NCBI GenBank assembly: GCA_963833985.1
Contig: CAWIAD010000002.1
Span: 2,816,001 to 2,880,000, forward strand
Direction of reading: 5' to 3'
DNA length: 64,000 bases
DNA from: an uncultured Planctomycetaceae bacterium
GTDB taxonomy: Bacteria; Planctomycetota; Planctomycetia; Isosphaerales; Isosphaeraceae
Shown here: positions 16,100 through 48,767 of the stretch, in pieces
Layout: every line of letters begins with the position of its first letter
How positions within the stretch are numbered: position 1 is the stretch's first letter
Position numbers and translations under genes: made by a program
Notes under the pieces: model-generated
The model's input: the letters and a program-made list of their open reading frames with translations, nothing else
Databases searched by the model: none
What the model was told of the DNA's origin: nothing

Positions 16100-17470
16100 A
16101 TGGACCAGCAGATTCGCGTGCTTGTGGTCGACGACGATGAGCCCCATGCCGAGGCCGTGGCCGAGAGCCTGGAGCGCGTGGGCTACGAGTGCGTCGTGGC
16201 CAACAGCGGTCGCGAGGGACTGCGGCTGATCGAGGAACAGACCTTCGACATCATCATCTCCGACCTGATCATGGAAGGCGTGGGCGGGCTGGAGATCCTG
16301 GCCAAGGCCAAGCGCGAGCTGCCCGACGCCGAGGTGGTCATCCTCACCGGGCACGGTACGATCAAGACCGCCGTCACGGCCATGCAGGCGGGCGCCACCA
16401 CGTACCTTACCAAGCCGCTCGATATCGGCGAGCTGCGCACGGTCGTGGACAAGGCATCGCAGTCCCAGCGCCTGGCGCGGTCGAACGTCGAGTTGCAGAA
16501 GCAGCTCAACGAGAAGTTCGGCTTCGAGGGGGTGATCGGCAACTCGCCGGCGATGCACACCGTCGTCGCCCGGCTGCGGCAGATCGCACCCACCTCGGCC
16601 TCGGTGCTGATCACCGGCGAGTCAGGCACCGGCAAGGAGCTGGTCGCCAAGGCGCTGCACAATAACAGCCCCCGGCGGTACAAGCCGTTCGTCGCGCTGA
16701 ACTGTGCCGCGCTCTCCGACAACATCCTGGAAAGCGAGCTGTTCGGGCACGTCAAGGGCGCCTTCACCGGGGCTGACCGGGAGCGCAAGGGGTGGTTCGA
16801 GCACGCCAACGGCGGCACGCTCTTCCTGGACGAGGTGGGCGACATCCCGCTGGGCACCCAGGTGAAGCTGCTGCGCGCACTCGAGAGCGGCGAGATCGTC
16901 CGCGTGGGCACGAACGAGCCGATCAAGGTCAACGTCCGGCTCATCTCGGCCACCAACCGCGAGCTCAGCGACGCCATCGCCGCCAGCGACTTCCGCCAGG
17001 ACCTGTACCACCGGCTCAAGGTGGTGAGCATCAAGCTTCCGCCGCTCCGCGAACGGCGCGAGGACATGGACCTGCTGATCGACCACTTCCTCAAGGAATT
17101 CTCCGCGTCCCACAGTCGCAAGATCAGCGCCGTCACTGCCGCGGTGCGCAAGCTCTTGCGGCAATACTCCTGGCCGGGAAACGTCCGAGAGCTGAAGAAC
17201 GTGATCGAGAGCATGGTGGTCATTGACACCGACGGCGTGCTTGACGTCGACGACCTCACCGAGGACATCCAGGCCGCCACCGTGGCCAGGACCGGCGACA
17301 GCGGCAGCGTCTCCGATGCACTCCTGGGCAAGCCGCTCGATGTCATCGAGAAGCACTTCATCCTGGAAACGCTGAAGCTCTGCGGAGGCAACCGCGAGGA
17401 GGCCGCGCGGATGCTCGGCATCGGCGAGCGCACGCTGTACCGCAAGCTCAAGGAGTATGGCGGAGGCTGA
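16100..17470 (+). CDS. NtrC-family sigma54-dependent response regulator (REC-AAA+-Fis HTH)
   Basis: VLVVDDD and SDLIM receiver motifs, [29 protein letters not shown] and WPGNVREL. C-terminal [19 protein letters not shown]. Confidence 0.95.
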
Positions 17471-33573: not shown

Positions 33574-34179
33574 ATGATCGCGATCATCGACTATGGGATG
33601 GGCAACCTGAGGAGCGTGCAGAAGGCCGTCGAGGCCGTCGGGCACCAGGCGGTGGTGACTTCCGATCCGGATACCGTGCGCCGGGCCAGTCACGTCATCC
33701 TGCCCGGAGTCGGGGCATTCGCCGACGCCATGGCCGAGCTCGATCGTAGCGGGCTGGGCGCGGCGTTCGTGGAGGCCGTGCGTGCCGGCACGCCATGCCT
33801 GGGGGTCTGCCTCGGGCTCCAGTTGCTCTTTGAGAGCAGCAGCGAGGACGGCGCGCACCAGGGCCTGGGACTTTTGCCCGGGAAGGTCGAGCGGTTCGTC
33901 TCGCGTCCAGGCCTGAAGATCCCGCACATGGGTTGGAACACGCTCGCGGCGCGACGGGACGTTCCCTTGCTGGCGGGGCTGGGTCCCGAGCCGTCGGTCT
34001 ATTTCGTGCATTCGTACCACGCCGTTGCCGGCAACCCCGACGACGTCGCCGCCGTGGCTCTTTATCCCGACCCGTTCGCGGCCATCGTCTGGCGCGAGAA
34101 CCTCATGGCTTGCCAGTTCCACCCCGAGAAGAGCCAGCGCGTGGGCCTGGCGATGTACGCCAACTTCGCGGCACTCTGA
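33574..34179 (+). CDS. hisH: Imidazole glycerol phosphate synthase glutaminase subunit
   Basis: IIDYGMGNL, LPGVGAF, GVCLGLQLL, PHMGWN, YFVHSY and QFHPEKS. Confidence 0.97.
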   Translation: MIAIIDYGMGNLRSVQKAVEAVGHQAVVTSDPDTVRRASHVILPGVGAFADAMAELDRSGLGAAFVEAVRAGTPCLGVCLGLQLLFESSSEDGAHQGLGLLPGKVERFVSRPGLKIPHMGWNTLAARRDVPLLAGLGPEPSVYFVHSYHAVAGNPDDVAAVALYPDPFAAIVWRENLMACQFHPEKSQRVGLAMYANFAAL

Positions 34180-34261
34180 GGCGGACTCGCAACTTGCGGC
34201 GACCCGCGGTCAGAGATACAGTGTGAGGTTGTTGAAGGACCTCTGTCGTTTTGGTGAACCC

Positions 34262-35020
34262 ATGCAAGTGATCCCGGCGATCGACCTGCGCGGAGGGCTG
34301 TGTGTCCGTCTCCGTCAGGGCGATTACGACCGTGAGACCGTCTTTGGCGACGACCCGGCGGCGATGGCCGCGCGATGGCAGGGCGAAGGGGCGAGCCGGA
34401 TTCACCTGGTCGATCTCGACGGTGCGAAATCGGGCCGGCCGGCGAATGAAGCAGCCGTGCGGAAGATCCTCGAATCGGTGCGGGTGCCCTGCCAGCTTGG
34501 CGGCGGCATCCGCGACGAAGCGATGATCGAGCGCTGGCTTCGCGCCGGGGTCGATCGGGTCATCGTCGGCACCCGTGCCGTGCGCGATCCGGACTGGTTC
34601 CGGTTGATGATCGAGTCCTATCCCGGCCGGTTGCTGCTGGGGCTCGACGCCCGCTCGGGCAAGGTGGCCACCGAGGGCTGGCTGGAGACGTCCTCGGTCG
34701 ACGCCGCGACCCTGGCCGGGGAGTTCAGTGGGCTGCCGCTGGCCGGCATCATCTACACCGACATTGCGCGGGACGGCATGCTCGAGGGCCCGAATCTTGA
34801 AGCCACCCAGGACCTGGCGGTGCGGGTGAAGGCGCCGGTGATCGCTTCCGGCGGCGTGGGCAGCCTCAGCGACATCGGTCGTCTCAGCCAGTTGCCGATC
34901 GCCGGCTGCATTGTCGGTCGGGCTCTCTACGACGGTCGGTTCTCGCTGGCCGAGGCCATCGCACGCGCCTCAAAAACGCCAGAACGAAGAGGTGCTGCCT
35001 CCGTACCGGACGAAGGCTGA
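34262..35020 (+). CDS. hisA: ProFAR isomerase
   Basis: VIPAIDLRGG.CVRL.QG, HLVDLDGA, GGGIR, YTDIARDGML.GPN and ASGGV. Confidence 0.96.
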   Translation: MQVIPAIDLRGGLCVRLRQGDYDRETVFGDDPAAMAARWQGEGASRIHLVDLDGAKSGRPANEAAVRKILESVRVPCQLGGGIRDEAMIERWLRAGVDRVIVGTRAVRDPDWFRLMIESYPGRLLLGLDARSGKVATEGWLETSSVDAATLAGEFSGLPLAGIIYTDIARDGMLEGPNLEATQDLAVRVKAPVIASGGVGSLSDIGRLSQLPIAGCIVGRALYDGRFSLAEAIARASKTPERRGAASVPDEG

Positions 35021-35098
35021 AGCACCGTCTGCGCACGCGACCGTACCGAACCACGTTCCATTCGCCATCAAGGCCGATCCATCGGAGATTCTCGTTCC

Positions 35099-37186
<2,088 letters not shown>

Positions 37187-38332: not shown

Positions 38333-39627
38333 TCAATCAAGGCTCAGGAGCGGCTCGACGAGCCCGTCGGTCGTGAACCGGCCAACCAGCCACCGCGCAC
38401 TGGTCTGGTAACCCAGGAACGATCTCGAGGCGGGTGCGCCAGGCTGCGATAGATCACGAGCGTATCTTCACGTCCCCAGCTCACGCGCACCGCAAAGGCG
38501 GTGTCGGGGGCACAGACGCGGGACTGCTGGGCAACGGTGAGCACCCTCCAGTTTGGCGGCCTGCGGCAGCGCCTGGGATCCCAGGTGAGCAGGAGCGGCA
38601 TCCAGAGCTTTCGTCCTTGCGCCATGGCGGCGAGCGACAGGCGAGTCCCGTCATCGGCCGCGCGAAGGTGGCCGCGGTCGGTGTCGTAGGGCGCGGCCGG
38701 CAAGGCGAGCGGGAGCGCCTGGGCTTTCACGCGGCCCCGGGCGGAGCGCAAGAGCATTCCGCGACAGTTTTCAAGGCGCTCGGCCGTGATTCCGGGCGGA
38801 AGACAGAACTCGGTATGGCAGAGGGTTCCGGCGAGCGTTCCGGCCTCGGCCTGGACGGCCAGCAGCGCCGTCTTGCGGCCGCGGAAGAGTACGGCAAGCT
38901 GTCGGAGCCGCAAAGCGCCGGAGCGGTAAGACCATTCCAGGCAATCGGCGGCCGAGCTGGTCACCCACGTTCCCGGCCGCGCTGCTGTGGTGAGTGCGTC
39001 CAGGCCGGGCTGCCGCCATTCCGGGCCGAGCCAGGAACAGCCCGCGCCCACCAGCTCCAGCCGGGTCTGGGCCGTTGTGCCGCGATGATCGACGACCAGC
39101 AGGTCGTCGTCCTTCTTCCAGCCTCCGCGCAGTACCGCCAGCACGCGGCGCTGGCACGACCAGGCCGGCAAGGGAGGTGGAACGACCTTGCGGCTCTGGC
39201 GTCCCAGCCACCAGCCGAGCACGCGCCCTTCGGCGGCCCGAGAATGGCGATCGAAAAGCTCGGCAAAAAGAGCCCGGTGATCCGCATCCCTGGTGCCACC
39301 GTCAAGGTCGGTGGCGATGGAGCCTGCGGGCCTGGAGAAACGCAAGGCAGCGCGCAGCAGGCCGAGCACGCGCTCCTCGACGGGCTGTGGCCAGCCCGGG
39401 CGGCTGCGTGCGGCGCGCATCAAGGCGGCAACACAGTCCCACCATTCAAGGAGGTCCAGGCGGACCGGAACGCCGTCGGCGTCCAGCTCCCGGCCCAACC
39501 ATCGAACCAGCTTCGTCGCGTCGCGCTGGTGAATCCAGTGGTCGACCGCCGCGGCCAGTGCATCGAGCGCCGGTGAAGCGGCGCGAACTGCGGGTTGCGT
39601 CGTCAATCCGGGAAGACTCCTGATCAC
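38333..39627 (-). CDS. Conserved-looking hypothetical protein; apparent frameshift at ~38436
   Basis: Long Trp-rich ORF. The C-terminus reads more protein-like in the shifted frame (SRSFLGYQTSARWLVGRFTTDGLVEPLLSLD*). GTG start at 39627 is tentative. Confidence 0.55.
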
Positions 39628-39970
39628 GGCGCGGACGGAGAGCCGCCTGAAGGAACGGGCGCCCGGGTCCGGAGCACCAGGGGCGTCTCGAGGCCAGTCA
39701 AGAGTAATGGATCCGCGGCCCGATCCCCAGTGGCCAGGCAGGAAGAACGTGGGAGTGCCCAGGTCACCCTCCCTCTGTCTGCTGGATTCTTGGGCGGCCG
39801 TGCACACGAAAGTGACTCGGGTTTTTCGCGGCGTGGAGAGCGCGCGATATTCCGCGAGCCGGGATGCGCTCAGAGCCCTCGACGTAACTCCCGATCGCCT
39901 CTCGCAGTCCGGCAGCGGCACGAGAGCGGGCCGGGGGAGAATCGATTTGTCTCAAGTTCGGAGAAAGTCT

Positions 39971-39987
39971 CTGGCATTGTGTTTGCT
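39971..39987 (+). promoter_or_regulatory. Sigma54 (-24/-12) promoter
   Basis: CTGGCATTGTGTTTGCT: TGGCA and TTGCT with exact GG-N10-GC spacing. Confidence 0.7.
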
Positions 39988-39997
39988 CTATACCCTG

Positions 39998-40307
39998 ACG
40001 TGACCTGGAAGAGAAGAAGAAAACAAAGGCTGCACGAGACATACGCAGCCAGGTAGCTCAGGCAGAGCTTCATCTTACAAGCAGCCACCCCACTGGCGAC
40101 GGTCGTTCTGCTCCGGTAGAACGGCTCCCCCGCCAAAGGGCGAGCGGGACGCCTCGCACGACCCCCCGCTCGCCCTTTCTCGAACAATGGTTGAGCTCGA
40201 AGCAAGGCTTCTGGAGTTCCCATCCCGCTAACCGGCCAGTTGATTTCGTACCGTACGACTAAGGGAGAGGTAGTCGTACGATACGGAGTCTCTGGCCGGT
40301 TTTTTTA
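39998..40307 (+). ncRNA. Candidate sigma54-dependent structured small RNA (~310 nt), family not recognised
   Basis: No credible ORF. Seven consecutive hairpins, including a cUCCGg tetraloop stem and a perfect 14-bp stem. G-U pairs favour the + strand. Ends in a hairpin plus T7. Confidence 0.6.
40230..40306 (+). terminator. Long hairpin with U-tract
   Basis: AACCGGCCAG...CTGGCCGGTT closes a ~29-bp imperfect stem, followed by a T run at 40300-40306. Confidence 0.65.
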
Positions 40308-40333: not shown

Positions 40334-41314
40334 TCAGGGCCGCTCGGATTTTGATCCGCTGTCCAGGAAACCTTGACCCTTGAGCCAGGTCGCGCAGAGC
40401 TTCGGCCACTCCCCAAACGCCGCGTTGGGACCGATGCCGAACTGGCGAGCGCCTCGGCCCAGCCCCAGGCCGTGCTGGCCCTTCTCGAAGAGGTGGAACT
40501 CGACGGGCACCTTCGCGGCCCGCAGCGCCATCACGAAAAGCAGGCTGTTCTCCGCGGGTACGCCCGTGTCCTCATTGGTGTGTGCCAGGAAAGTCGGCGG
40601 CGTCGCGGAGGTCACCTGGGTCTCGTTGGACAGCGAATGAACGAGTTCGTCCGGGGCATGGTCGCCCAGCAGGTTTCGTTTGGAACCGGTATGTCCATAC
40701 GGCGTGGCCAGGGCGATCACAGGGTAGAGCAGGATCATCCGGTCTGGCCGCGAGCTGACACGCTCGATGGGGTCCTCGGCATCGGTCTTGCCGGCGTCGA
40801 AATGCGTGCCGGCCGTCGAGGCCAGGTGTCCTCCGGCCGAGAACCCGAGAATGGCGATCCGGCGCGGGTCGATGTTCCATTTCTGGGGACCGGCCGCCCT
40901 GACCGTGCGGATCGCCCGGGCGGCGTCCTGGAGCATGGCCGGGTGGTGATACCGCGGACCGAGCCGGTACTTCAGTACGAACGCCGAGACGCCCAGCGAG
41001 TTGAGCCACTCCGCGACCTGTTTGCCTTCGTGGTCCATCGCCAGCATGCCGTAGCCCCCGCCCGGGCAGATGACCACCGCGGCTCCCGTGGCTTTTTCCG
41101 GCGGCGGCAGCCAGACCGTCAGGGTGGGGACGTCGAGTTGCGGATCGGAACCCTTGGCACTCGGAGTTCCCGCCGGCCAGAGGGCCACGACGGGGTGCTG
41201 GGTGGGCTGGTCCTGCCCGGTGGCCTCCACTGCCCGCCCGCCCACCAGCGCCAGCCCGCAGAGCAGGCTCGCCAGGCCAAGCTTCATCCGCTTCCTTCCA
41301 GCCATTCCGCGCAT
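40334..41314 (-). CDS. Secreted alpha/beta hydrolase (acetylxylan-esterase-like)
   Basis: GGAGG RBS and signal peptide. CPGGGY, GFSAGGHLA, TPPTFLAH...D and HGLG. Confidence 0.88.
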   Translation of the reverse strand: MRGMAGRKRMKLGLASLLCGLALVGGRAVEATGQDQPTQHPVVALWPAGTPSAKGSDPQLDVPTLTVWLPPPEKATGAAVVICPGGGYGMLAMDHEGKQVAEWLNSLGVSAFVLKYRLGPRYHHPAMLQDAARAIRTVRAAGPQKWNIDPRRIAILGFSAGGHLASTAGTHFDAGKTDAEDPIERVSSRPDRMILLYPVIALATPYGHTGSKRNLLGDHAPDELVHSLSNETQVTSATPPTFLAHTNEDTGVPAENSLLFVMALRAAKVPVEFHLFEKGQHGLGLGRGARQFGIGPNAAFGEWPKLCATWLKGQGFLDSGSKSERP

Positions 41315-42959: not shown

Positions 42960-44654
<1,695 letters not shown>

Positions 44655-44734
44655 TCACAGGTTCCCGTCACGCAGCGACGACTATCCGGCAACACTGACT
44701 TTTCAGGCAATTCTTGAATAAGGGTGACAAGGCG

Positions 44735-45034
44735 ATGGCAAAGAACACGATTCGTCCGCTCGAGGACCGGGTGGTGATCCAGCAGATTGAGGCCGAGGAG
44801 AAGACGGCCGGAGGCATCGTGCTCCCCGATACGGCGAAGGAGAAGCCCCAGCGCGGCAAGGTCCTTGCCGTGGGCCCCGGCAAGCTCCTGGATTCCGGCG
44901 AGCGTGCCCCGATCGGCGTGGTCGAGGGTGACGAGGTCCTCTTCGGCAAGTACTCGGGCACGGAGATCAAGGTCGACGGCGAGGAGATCAAGATCCTCCG
45001 CGAGTCCGACATCCTGGCCAAGATCATGAAGTAA
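44735..45034 (+). CDS. groS: Co-chaperonin GroES
   Basis: [35 protein letters not shown] and ESDILA. Confidence 0.98.
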
Positions 45035-45079
45035 CGCGGCATCGCTGCTGGTCTTTCCATCCATCCGTCCGAGGAGCAA

Positions 45080-46711
<1,632 letters not shown>

Positions 46712-46877
46712 TCGATTTGCGGACGGGTGGCTGGGACGCGAGCCGCGGGAGAAGGCTGCTCTCTTCCCGTGCAGCCGCGGCAAATGTACCAGCCGCCCGG
46801 TCGCGATCCTTATAAAACCTGCTCGAGAGGCACGATTCCGTAACTCATCGGGTCATCTGTCACGAACCGGCGTCGTA

Positions 46878-46896
46878 TGATATTCTGGAAATATCA
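46878..46896. promoter_or_regulatory. Operator-like palindrome upstream of dnaJ
   Basis: TGATATT-CTGGA-AATATCA, overlapping a TATGAT -10-like hexamer at 46876-46881. Confidence 0.4.
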
Positions 46897-46966
46897 ATGG
46901 AGACGGGGAGGGTCGATGGACGGCCCACGCCGATCCGGGAACGTCCATGAGGACTGCTGAGACGCC

Positions 46967-48124
46967 ATGCCGATGGCCACGACCAAGCGCGATTTCTACG
47001 AGGTGCTCGGGGTTGCTCGAGATGCCGAGCTTGATGACGTAAAAAAAGCTTACAGGCAGATGGCGCTCAAGTTCCATCCGGACCGGAACCCGGGTGACCA
47101 GGAGGCCGAGAAGAGGTTCAAGGAGGCCGCCGAGGCGTACGAGGTTCTTTCGGACCCCGAAAAGCGGCAGCGCTACGACCGTTACGGCCACGCGGGGCTG
47201 GAAGGCGCTGCCTTCCACGACTTCCGGTCCACCGACGATATCATGTCGGCGTTCAGCGACATCTTCGGGGGCGGGCTCTTCGGCGATCTCTTCGGTGAGC
47301 GCCGGCGCGGGCCGCGTCCCGGCCCCGACCTGCTCATGAAGGTGGAAATCGAGCTGGTGGAAGCGGCACGCGGCACTTCCCGCACGATCGAAGTGAGCCG
47401 GCAGGATTTTTGCGGTGAATGCCGCGGGTCGGGGGCACGCAGAGGAACGGTGGCCACCACCTGCAATTACTGTGGCGGCCGCGGCCAGATCGTGCAGGCC
47501 CGCGGCTTCTTCCAGGTGGCCACCACCTGCCCGGCTTGCGGAGGCGACGGCGTTCGCATCACCGACCCCTGCCCGACCTGCCGGGGCGCGGGCCGCCTCC
47601 CCGCCGCCGCCAGGCTCCAGGTCGATGTGCCGCCGGGCGTGGAAAGCGGCATGTGGCTGCAGTTACGCGGACAGGGCGAACTGGGAGATCTGGGAGCGCC
47701 GCGTGGAAACCTGCGCATCCAGGTGGTCGTCAAGCGGCACCCGTTCTTCGAGCGGCGTCGCAACGACCTGTTCACCCAGGTTCCCATCAGCTTCGCCCAG
47801 GCCGCCCTGGGCGCGGAGATCCAGGTCCCGACGCTGGACGGACCCGACAAGGTCGCCGTTCCCCGAGGAACCCAGAGCGGGGAAATCATCCGCATCAAGG
47901 GGCGCGGCATGCCGGACGTGAGCGGCCGGGGACGGGGCGACGAGCTTGTCGAGGTGATGGTCGAGACGCCGCGGCACCTCACGGCTCGTCAGGAAGAGTT
48001 GCTCAGAGAATTCGCCGAGATCGAGCACAATCAGGTGAGTCCCCGGCGCAGGAGCTTCTTCGACAAGCTGCGGGATTACTTCACCGAGGAAACCGAGACA
48101 GACGAGCCCGGCGAGGCGACGTGA
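46967..48124 (+). CDS. dnaJ: Chaperone DnaJ
   Basis: J domain with HPD, G/F region and four CxxCxGxG repeats. Confidence 0.98.
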
Positions 48125-48188
48125 ACGTGCGCGGGCCGGGCCGCCCCCTGCGATCAGACCGGCCGCGAATTGCCACACGAGGTGAATC

Positions 48189-48767
48189 ATGAACAATCTC
48201 AACCCCGAGTCCGAACGGATGGATGAACCGGCCACCGGCCCGGAGAGTGGTGACGATCCTGCGAACGGTCCGGACGGCGGCTCGGGCCCACGCGGCCGAA
48301 CCGCGCCGGAGCGCGGCGACGAGATCGGCGTGCTGCAAGGGGAGCGGGACGCGCTGAAGGAGCAACTCCTGAGGCTTCAGGCCGACTTCGCCAACTACCA
48401 GAAGCGTGCCAAGCAGCAGGCCGACGAGGTGCGCACCTTCGCCGTGGGCAACCTGGCGCAGGATGTTCTCGGGGGAATCGACAACCTCGAACGCGCCATC
48501 GACGCCCTGCGTTCCTCGGCCAACCAGGGAATCTCCGCGGGACTGGACATGGTCCAGAAACAACTGCTGGGCATCCTGGCCAAGTATGGGGTCGAGCCGA
48601 TTCCGGCCCTCGGCGAGCCCTTCGACCCGCATTACCACGAGGCGCTCCTGCAACAGCCCAGCGACCAGCATCCGGAGGGAACCGTGGTCGCTGAGCTTGG
48701 CAAGGGCTACAAGATTCACGACCGCGTGCTCAGGCCCAGCAAGGTGGCCGTGTCGGTCCGGCCCTGA
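48189..48767 (+). CDS. grpE: Nucleotide exchange factor GrpE
   Basis: RLQADFANYQKR, DNLERA, FDPHYHEA and GYKIHDRVLRPSKV. Confidence 0.97.
   Translation: MNNLNPESERMDEPATGPESGDDPANGPDGGSGPRGRTAPERGDEIGVLQGERDALKEQLLRLQADFANYQKRAKQQADEVRTFAVGNLAQDVLGGIDNLERAIDALRSSANQGISAGLDMVQKQLLGILAKYGVEPIPALGEPFDPHYHEALLQQPSDQHPEGTVVAELGKGYKIHDRVLRPSKVAVSVRP

Follow-up and report, generated by a model that had tools for sequence, protein, structure and literature searches.

The window, that is, the whole 64,000-nucleotide stretch of DNA that was analyzed, contains the gene for a small RNA whose family is real, conserved, and apparently undescribed. Sequence comparison suggests that the RNA is sigma54 dependent, is induced by an NtrC-type activator, pairs with the leaders of glnA-III and amtB mRNAs without Hfq, and raises the expression of these genes, and this explanation is probably the correct one. 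All coordinates given here are positions in the window unless a contig is named; the genome that contains the window is referred to as G000 and its family as f1.

A sequence-only reading of this DNA had proposed a self-contained, sigma54-driven RNA gene with a -24/-12 promoter, a purine tract at 40007-40027, a series of hairpins, and a T7 tract, all of which lie where that reading placed them (Table 1). The promoter is kept at all 24 aligned loci and at 83 of the 85 homologous loci found in the GTDB collection, and strict -24/-12 matches number only 35 in the whole of G000. One-hairpin homologues have transcripts of 278 to 324 nt among the lengths sampled. A metatranscriptome contig from a relative (n = 1) stops 8 nt beyond the U7 tract, which is a weak hint to the 3' end. 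Contigs from metatranscriptomes lie on the element in 12 of 14 and 13 of 13 cases, but these are contigs of relatives from eight runs that were chosen because they hold the element, and they carry no strand, ends, or level and thus do not prove expression or habitat; in a set of 24 metatranscriptome runs the share was only 0.05.

The gene stands apart from its neighbors. As had been noted, it faces a convergent gene, which encodes an alpha/beta hydrolase (40334-41287, - strand), and it holds no credible open reading frame (ORF): no small ORF is conserved among 78 homologous transcripts, for which reason a small-peptide reading was dropped. A riboswitch or other cis-acting leader is characterized by a fixed co-directional gene downstream, and no such gene was found among the homologous loci, where the downstream neighbors are co-directional in 37 cases and convergent in 37. 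Since these genes face both ways equally, the RNA gene is an independent transcription unit and not a leader. The divergent neighbor (approximately 38344-39615, - strand) belongs to no Pfam family and adjoins the RNA gene in 45 of 85 loci; a longer ORF call for it, extending to 39921, overlaps the upstream activator site (UAS) and is probably not real. Many dispersed copies would have pointed to a repeat. The element is present in a single copy in G000, and a dispersed repeat of the REP or MITE type, which requires many copies per genome, was rejected because there is only one.

Table 1. Features of the predicted RNA gene and its upstream region, in window positions
Feature	Position	Strand	Basis and remarks
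NtrC-like upstream activator box, TGC-N11-GC	39780..39796	+	192 bp before the -24 element
sigma54 -24/-12 promoter	39972..39987	+	Sequence; TGGC at 39972-75, GC at 39985-86; predicted +1 at 39998
Predicted RNA, ~309 nt	39998..40306	+	Promoter spacing and U-tract; both ends predicted
Variable purine-rich 5' region with nonconserved hairpins	39998..40084	+	Length and sequence differ among homologues
C-rich stretch CCACCCC, conserved, single-stranded	40085..40091	+	Near-invariant columns in alignments A1 and A3; mostly unpaired
Core helix P1, with a covarying variable hairpin (40101-40126) closed by invariant GGCG/CGCC	40095..40134	+	Helices 1-3 of the pair analysis
Core hairpin P2, near-invariant stem, only in f1	40135..40178	+	Alignment and core-model search
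Seed A, invariant loop CCUCGCACGAC and C-bulge	40152..40165	+	Complement enriched in amtB leaders
Variable spacer hairpin	40193..40219	+	Hairpin predicted here in most homologues, sequence unrelated
Terminal long hairpin, a modular unit that doubles as predicted intrinsic terminator	40230..40301	+	Homologues have 1-7 in tandem
Seed B, loop N-GGGAGAGG, complement of CCUCUCCC	40262..40270	+	Invariant in 31/31 hairpins of alignment A2
U7 tract, predicted 3' end	40300..40306	+	Sequence; U-rich tail in most homologues

The 316-nt region folds better than shuffled sequences on both strands (z = -5.06 on the + strand and -5.07 on the reverse complement), and because the two score alike, fold energy alone is silent on the strand. 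The + strand, which had been claimed from G-U pairs, is called from the promoter and the U-tract and from 78 homologous transcripts, in whose loop-closing stem 52 cells are G-U and 6 are A-C on that strand. Covariation had been suggested as a check of the RNA, and it is present: 23 of 47 pairs change on both sides and 94.6% of cells pair in the 24 aligned loci, a number of double-sided changes that exceeds all 500 shuffles and all slid controls, with the reservation that kinship inflates such counts. In the terminal hairpin, all seven loop-closing pairs are compensatory (30 hairpins) and the stem covaries freely. The core is held together by GGCG at 40095-98, which pairs with CGCC at 40131-34 in 24 of 24 homologues. 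Because of this pairing, and because CCACCCC at 40085-91 is mostly unpaired, the stem previously drawn at 40084-40097 is probably wrong. The 5' tract, the stems at 40028-50 and 40055-69, the cUCCGg loop, and the stem at 40193-40219 are present as described in the window; their sequences are not conserved. The first 40 nt of the transcript average 64% purine.

The invariant loop of the 3' hairpin is NGGGAGAGG, and its seed B is unpaired with a probability of 0.97 to 1.0. The terminal loop had been given as a fixed AGGGAGAGG; in 78 transcripts it is instead N-GGGAGAGG, in which N is variable. Intramolecular pairing of the G-rich loop with a CCCUUUCUC tract was considered and dropped, since the tract varies without compensation and is missing from the minimal RNAs described below.

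The novelty that had been claimed for the RNA holds against Rfam (15), in which no family reaches the gathering threshold for the region (best match, 11.9 bits) and 20 homologous loci yield one match, with an E value of 0.28, below threshold. Nor, as anticipated, is it one of the housekeeping RNAs: the genes for SRP, 6S, tmRNA, and RNase P lie elsewhere in the genome, with a 6S-like RNA at G000:C1:2171325-2171489 scoring 39.6 bits, below the Rfam cut-off. No description of the family was found in the literature searched, a scope that leaves out most subscription papers. Three papers on motif discovery (PMC8632094, PMC5737381, and PMC11109978) do not name planctomycetes in their main text. The planctomycete sigma54 regulon is treated in PMC12316311, in the accessible part of which sRNAs do not figure, and a table in the accessible part of a 2022 review lists only eight annotated sRNAs for the whole PVC group (PMC9029176). 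A regulatory sRNA with assigned targets in Planctomycetes was likewise not found in the literature searched.

The RNA was found in 23 of 24 genomes of the same family by BLAST and in 36 of 36 f1 genomes with a hairpin model. An exact pattern of the core, run over the GTDB collection, gave the 85 loci mentioned above; the 80 listed titles are all planctomycete records, and since every cultured name among them belongs to a genus of the Isosphaeraceae, f1 is most likely this family. Cultured carriers include Paludisphaera soli with 5 hairpins, Aquisphaera insulae with 4, and Tundrisphaera lichenicola and Tautonia sociabilis with 1 each. The terminal hairpin occurs once in 72 of the 85 loci, in two to seven copies in eight (in one of which the second match is distant and probably unrelated), and is absent from five core-only paralogues. 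In these five (L049, L052, L071, L075, and L093) a CCCUCCC bulge is present and the G-rich hairpin is missing; amtB is no more than 1.5 kb away from four of them, a gene for a CitMHS_2-type transporter follows four, and four of the genomes contain a full copy of the RNA as well.

Outside f1 the core module has no credible match among 150 other genomes of the phylum, in which the core model R1 gave weak matches (best E value, 5.6e-4), none with the loop hairpin. What is found there is the hairpin itself, in the form of an approximately 75-nt minimal RNA that a sigma54-like promoter immediately precedes; a small GGCGAGAGCC hairpin often comes before the loop hairpin, and the RNA sometimes occurs as tandem genes (four in G204). 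Of the 33 genomes of family f5, 26 were confirmed to carry this minimal RNA (30 loci inspected; three genomes without a match), and the hairpin RNA was also seen in f7, f9, and f81. In f3, f4, f78, and f83 the weak matches to models R2 and R3 are ordinary terminators without the loop, for which reason the RNA is counted as not found in the f3 and f4 genomes searched. A promoter-plus-loop pattern run over 351 genomes of the phylum stayed at noise level, with many matches in controls, and therefore says nothing about other classes; a viral scan gave seven matches, all due to chance and without stem or loop. The four tandem genes of G204 (L175, G204:C1:583900-587300) are complete, each with sigma54 promoter, small hairpin, and loop hairpin, and the fourth has the loop variant GGGAGAGA. 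The gene divergent from the minimal RNA in L169, L175, L179, L180, and L224 is presumably a serine acetyltransferase gene.

The search for targets started from the presence of amtB and BBP2 porin genes among the neighbors of the RNA gene and from CU-rich complements of the loop in the amtB leaders of G000. In 23 of 85 loci, no more than 1.5 kb separates the RNA gene from amtB, a BBP2 porin gene, or the LysR gene that precedes gltB, and two loci (L458 and L459) contain full clusters of RNA, porin, (glnK), amtB, and glnA-III, with the porin, amtB, and glnA-III genes within 16 kb of the RNA gene. In G000 the RNA gene is outside the nitrogen cluster. Start codons for the leaders were predicted by a crude script, and all counts of sites come from kin genomes, so that p-values overstate the case. 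In the discovery set, perfect CCTCTCCC was present in 6 of 29 f1 amtB leaders compared with 0.9% of G000 genes. In the held-out set of 28 f1 glnA-III leaders (29 of 30 loci were used and one further locus was dropped because it had no predicted start), 15 contained CTCTCCC, which came out on top of all 16,384 7-mers, against a background of 3.4% in 3,892 G000 leaders and 1 of 28 on the antisense strand of the glnA-III leaders. A further held-out set of 20 amtB leaders contained it in five.

The same word stands out in a second family. Among 27 f5 glnA-III leaders, CCTCTCCC is first of the 8-mers (9 leaders, compared with shuffles) and CCTCTCC first of the 7-mers (14 leaders); in f4, where no RNA was found, the loop complement occurs in none of 10. 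Full 8-bp helices with one G-U allowed can be formed by 14/28 glnA-III leaders in f1, 15/27 in f5, and 0/10 in f4, with a background of 4.2%. Within f5, the site is present in 15 of 21 genomes that bear the RNA and in 1 of 6 that lack it (Fisher p = 0.027, among kin genomes). In the six RNA-bearing genomes without the site, glnA-III is internal to an operon; the exceptions in the other direction are G504, which has sites and in which no RNA was found, and G505, which has a near-site without the RNA. Sorted by context, the 34 sites whose flanks are complete make 29 unrelated groups, and control regions of the same family contain the site in 1 of 78 and 3 of 78 cases.

Other genes give a more mixed picture. 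P-II leaders are not enriched (1/9, or 2/29 without start prediction), and close relatives of gltB give weak support (CTCTCCC in 2/13 and CTCTCC in 5/13, four of which are nearly identical). A perfect site within 300 nt is absent from about half of the glnA-III leaders and from most amtB leaders, and by chance the 7-mer turns up in about 3% of leaders overall. The 31 G000 genes with the perfect 8-mer near the start form no coherent set. For seed A, helices of at least 9 bp with at most one G-U are found in 7/28 and 3/20 amtB leaders against a background of 3.5%, a comparison made post hoc; glnA-III leaders form no such helix (0/28 and 0/27). In G000, the sigma54 promoter of one amtB gene (C1:2040072) is followed within ~25 nt by both seed complements, adjacent to each other, and this gene shares first place among the 7,157 predicted genes when ranked by combined score; glnA-III contains two seed B sites and gltB one. 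The predicted pairing comprises a loop seed of 7 to 9 bp at about -14 kcal/mol. Covariation between seed and target cannot be shown because the seed never varies. The RNA thus has, by computation, the conserved exposed seed and the complementary sites in mRNAs that characterize a base-pairing sRNA, and together these data make a strong computational case that nitrogen genes are its predicted targets. A separate motif, CCTG..GATCGGCTCTC..CCGATC, recurs before the BBP2 porin gene in L062, L080, L086, L096, L097, and L118, at 400-620 nt downstream of the core; it is structured, contains the seed B complement, has no Rfam match, and may be a target site or a separate cis element.

A different function had been put forward for the loop, namely, that of a protein sponge acting through ANGGA loops and an Hfq-type A-tract. 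No partner was found for the second part: Hfq (PF17209) has no match in G000, a genome that is 96% complete; sRNAs of the Qrr and GlmY/Z type depend on Hfq in their host. The first part, in which the GGA loop would titrate a CsrA paralogue or another RNA-binding protein and the CU-rich sites would be a promoter-proximal element or a protein site, is quite unlikely. It could draw on the 10 CsrA genes and single FliW gene of G000, on the repetition of the hairpin unit one to seven times, and on the full exposure of a GGA in the loop, and sponges such as CsrB, RsmZ, and CrcZ (the last of which is sigma54 driven) also have repeated hairpins and a purine loop with GGA. CsrA-type proteins bind the motif ANGGA, and sponges of this type expose many copies of GGA or ANGGA, whereas in 78 homologous transcripts GGA is depleted (453 vs 625 expected), as is ANGGA (94 vs 121 expected). 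Among the one-hairpin RNAs, 55 of 71 expose just one GGA; hairpin units mostly have one that is unpaired, and where ANGGA calls for an A, the base varies (U 34, A 32, G 25, C 4). The presence of CsrA in the host says little, as CsrA is encoded in 151 of 151 genomes of the class, in 2 to 17 copies, and is most numerous in f4 (6 to 17), where the RNA was not found. A sponge would also leave unexplained that in two families no word ranks above the exact loop complement in the glnA-III leaders. An 8-nt loop that is invariant on a variable stem is more like a pairing seed. No RNA antagonist of the planctomycete CsrA paralogues was identified in G000 and 150 genomes of the class, and the accessible part of PMC4682653 proposes FliW, not an sRNA, as the CsrA antagonist in Planctomycetes.

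The RNA may be processed into hairpin units. If so, the transcript might be a precursor whose hairpins act mainly on another target, such as an sRNA or the anti-SD (anti-Shine-Dalgarno) sequence of the ribosome, with the nitrogen leaders minor or incidental. The modules are indeed separable (5 of 85 loci have the core alone, and outside the family the hairpin occurs alone), the loop is similar to an SD sequence, and no partner has been assigned to the invariant core stem or to CCACCCC. The pairing of the loop with the 16S tail is nevertheless weak (-6.9 kcal/mol compared with -10.1 for a canonical SD), nothing convincing was found in rRNA, tRNA, tmRNA, SRP, or 6S RNA, and G000 lacks another hairpin that combines a CCUCUCCC loop with a stem longer than 5 bp, all of which makes such a main target very improbable. 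The core loop as an anti-SD seed was rejected as well, the TGC-GAGG word ranking 27th of 64 at ribosome sites.

The case for nitrogen control of the preferred sRNA begins upstream of its promoter. NtrC-type activators recognize the consensus that was used for the box search, and with one mismatch or fewer it is found upstream of 46 of 78 homologous promoters compared with 12 in shuffles, with a peak about 190 bp upstream of the promoter and 31 sites in the single 20-bp bin from -200 to -181. A UAS matrix trained on these sites places the window's site at the top of 61 sigma54-like promoters of G000, which is in part a consequence of the training, and its scores exceed the 95th percentile of the background at 13 of 17 held-out f5 RNA promoters and 7 of 17 amtB promoters; the amtB and glnA promoters of G000 itself gave no score. 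None of the enhancer-binding proteins of G000 passes the NtrC cut-off, though several NtrC-family activators are encoded. One of these lies in the window at 16118-17455 (+ strand), 22 kb from the RNA, has receiver, sigma54 AAA+, and Fis HTH domains, and is the third-best match to the ntrC model in G000, below the cut-off. Also upstream, about 90 bp before the promoter, is GACGTAA (39881-39887), which 17 of 85 loci retain and which ranks first among the 7-mers of one set of amtB leaders; that it is part of an IHF-type bending site is a guess. Five closely spaced, near-identical sigma54-like sites (GGTGGCACYTAACTTGC) at G000:C2:2520932-2521152 suggest a short repeat array. Elsewhere in the window, 42960-48767 is presumably a groEL-groES-groEL-dnaJ-grpE-like chaperone cluster, and 33574-37186 holds what we take to be hisH, hisA, and an EF-G-like gene.

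Under nitrogen limitation, an NtrC-type activator would bind the upstream box and stimulate sigma54 transcription of the RNA. The invariant G-rich loop would then pair, independently of Hfq, with CUCUCC(C) in the glnA-III and amtB leaders, and in f1 seed A may provide a second contact on amtB leaders. The likeliest route to a greater output is that the mRNA 5' end or leader would be shielded from RNase E/G or from Rho loading. Rho and RNase E/G are encoded; RNase J was not found. Because amtB C1:2040072 of G000 carries both complements just after its own sigma54 promoter, it would form a coherent feed-forward loop with the RNA.

The sign of regulation is likely to be positive because the targets scavenge nitrogen and because the sites rarely overlap the SD and are often at the predicted mRNA 5' end. 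A seed complement is present in the first 45 nt behind 9 of 16 sigma54-like promoters of amtB. In one orthologous group of f5 the site follows a -10-like TATAA(C/A) box by exactly 8 nt in six of seven genomes, the intervening 8 nt vary, and the seventh genome (G501) has neither site nor RNA. An amtB site in L291, at -244, is upstream of the predicted promoter. The positive sign is also suggested by the distribution of sigma54 promoters, since glnA-III has its own mainly where the RNA is missing (6/10 leaders in f4, 1/28 in f1, and 0/27 in f5). Most target sites are free of pairing, and few are paired with the SD. Blocking of the site made the ribosome site easier to open, with a gain above 1 kcal, in just 10 of 37 leaders, so that simple relief of an anti-SD fold is not general, and it was rejected as the general mechanism.

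The same pairing with the same targets might instead repress or fine-tune, through negative feedback or by delivering a duplex to a nuclease. Target enrichment says nothing about the sign, a few sites are within ~40 nt of the start, and amtB is repressed by some other nitrogen sRNAs, a subject on which the literature search found no paper. Repression is nonetheless unlikely, for the sites are mostly far from the SD and do not cover it, and the occurrence of glnA-III sigma54 promoters mainly where the RNA is absent reads as a swap of activating routes. A broader scenario built on the preferred, activating sRNA can be offered only tentatively: an RNA ancient at the level of the class may have replaced direct sigma54 transcription of glutamine synthetase in several families, capping mRNA 5' ends without Hfq through its G-rich 8-nt loop, with dose set by duplication of hairpins in tandem or of whole genes and with a fusion in one family that created a two-seed clamp on amtB.

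Multi-loop C-rich sRNAs (cuckoo/CcsR/NfeR1, LhrC, and RsaE) also use redundant identical loops as seeds, and several are Hfq independent. Their anti-SD loops (CCUCC) bring about repression at the ribosome site, whereas the planctomycete loop is the G-rich opposite and its complement is upstream in the leader. A closer parallel is NrsZ of Pseudomonas, which has an RpoN promoter, NtrB/C-dependent induction by nitrogen, processing into short forms, and 1 to 6 tandem hairpins with an invariant 8-nt loop, ACAGGCAG, and spacer hairpins; in the accessible part of the paper (PMC4253122) activation is proposed to occur by pairing in the rhlA 5' leader, gel shifts detected no binding, and the mechanism is called unknown. 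The planctomycete RNA shares the RpoN promoter, the tandem hairpins (1 to 7) with an invariant 8-nt loop, the spacer hairpins, and the proposed activation by loop pairing in a 5' leader, and NtrB/C-mediated nitrogen induction, shown for NrsZ, is predicted for it. The two differ in the loop (GGGAGAGG vs ACAGGCAG), in the targets (nitrogen genes vs rhlA), and in phylum, and there is no sequence similarity (no Rfam match) and no common loop that would make them homologues; unlike that of NrsZ, the loop complement of the planctomycete RNA is statistically visible in target leaders.

The mode of action proposed here, mRNA protection, is that of sRNA154 of Methanosarcina mazei, a nitrogen-starvation RNA with two loops that stabilizes glnA1, nifH, and nrpA mRNAs by masking nuclease sites (PMC5867862, accessible part). 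That RNA differs in being archaeal, without sigma54 and of unrelated sequence, and in repressing glnA2 through an anti-RBS loop. The planctomycete RNA is therefore NrsZ-like in architecture, sRNA154-like in proposed action, and a member of neither family. It is a clear case of the NrsZ architecture with target sites visible in genomes, the NrsZ mechanism having been left unproven by its discoverers in the part of their paper available. Planctomycetes are abundant in soil, peat, and water; to the study of how they control nitrogen assimilation the present analysis contributes an RNA family with two seeds and named targets, a predicted activator box, and a natural experiment in the presence and absence of the RNA.
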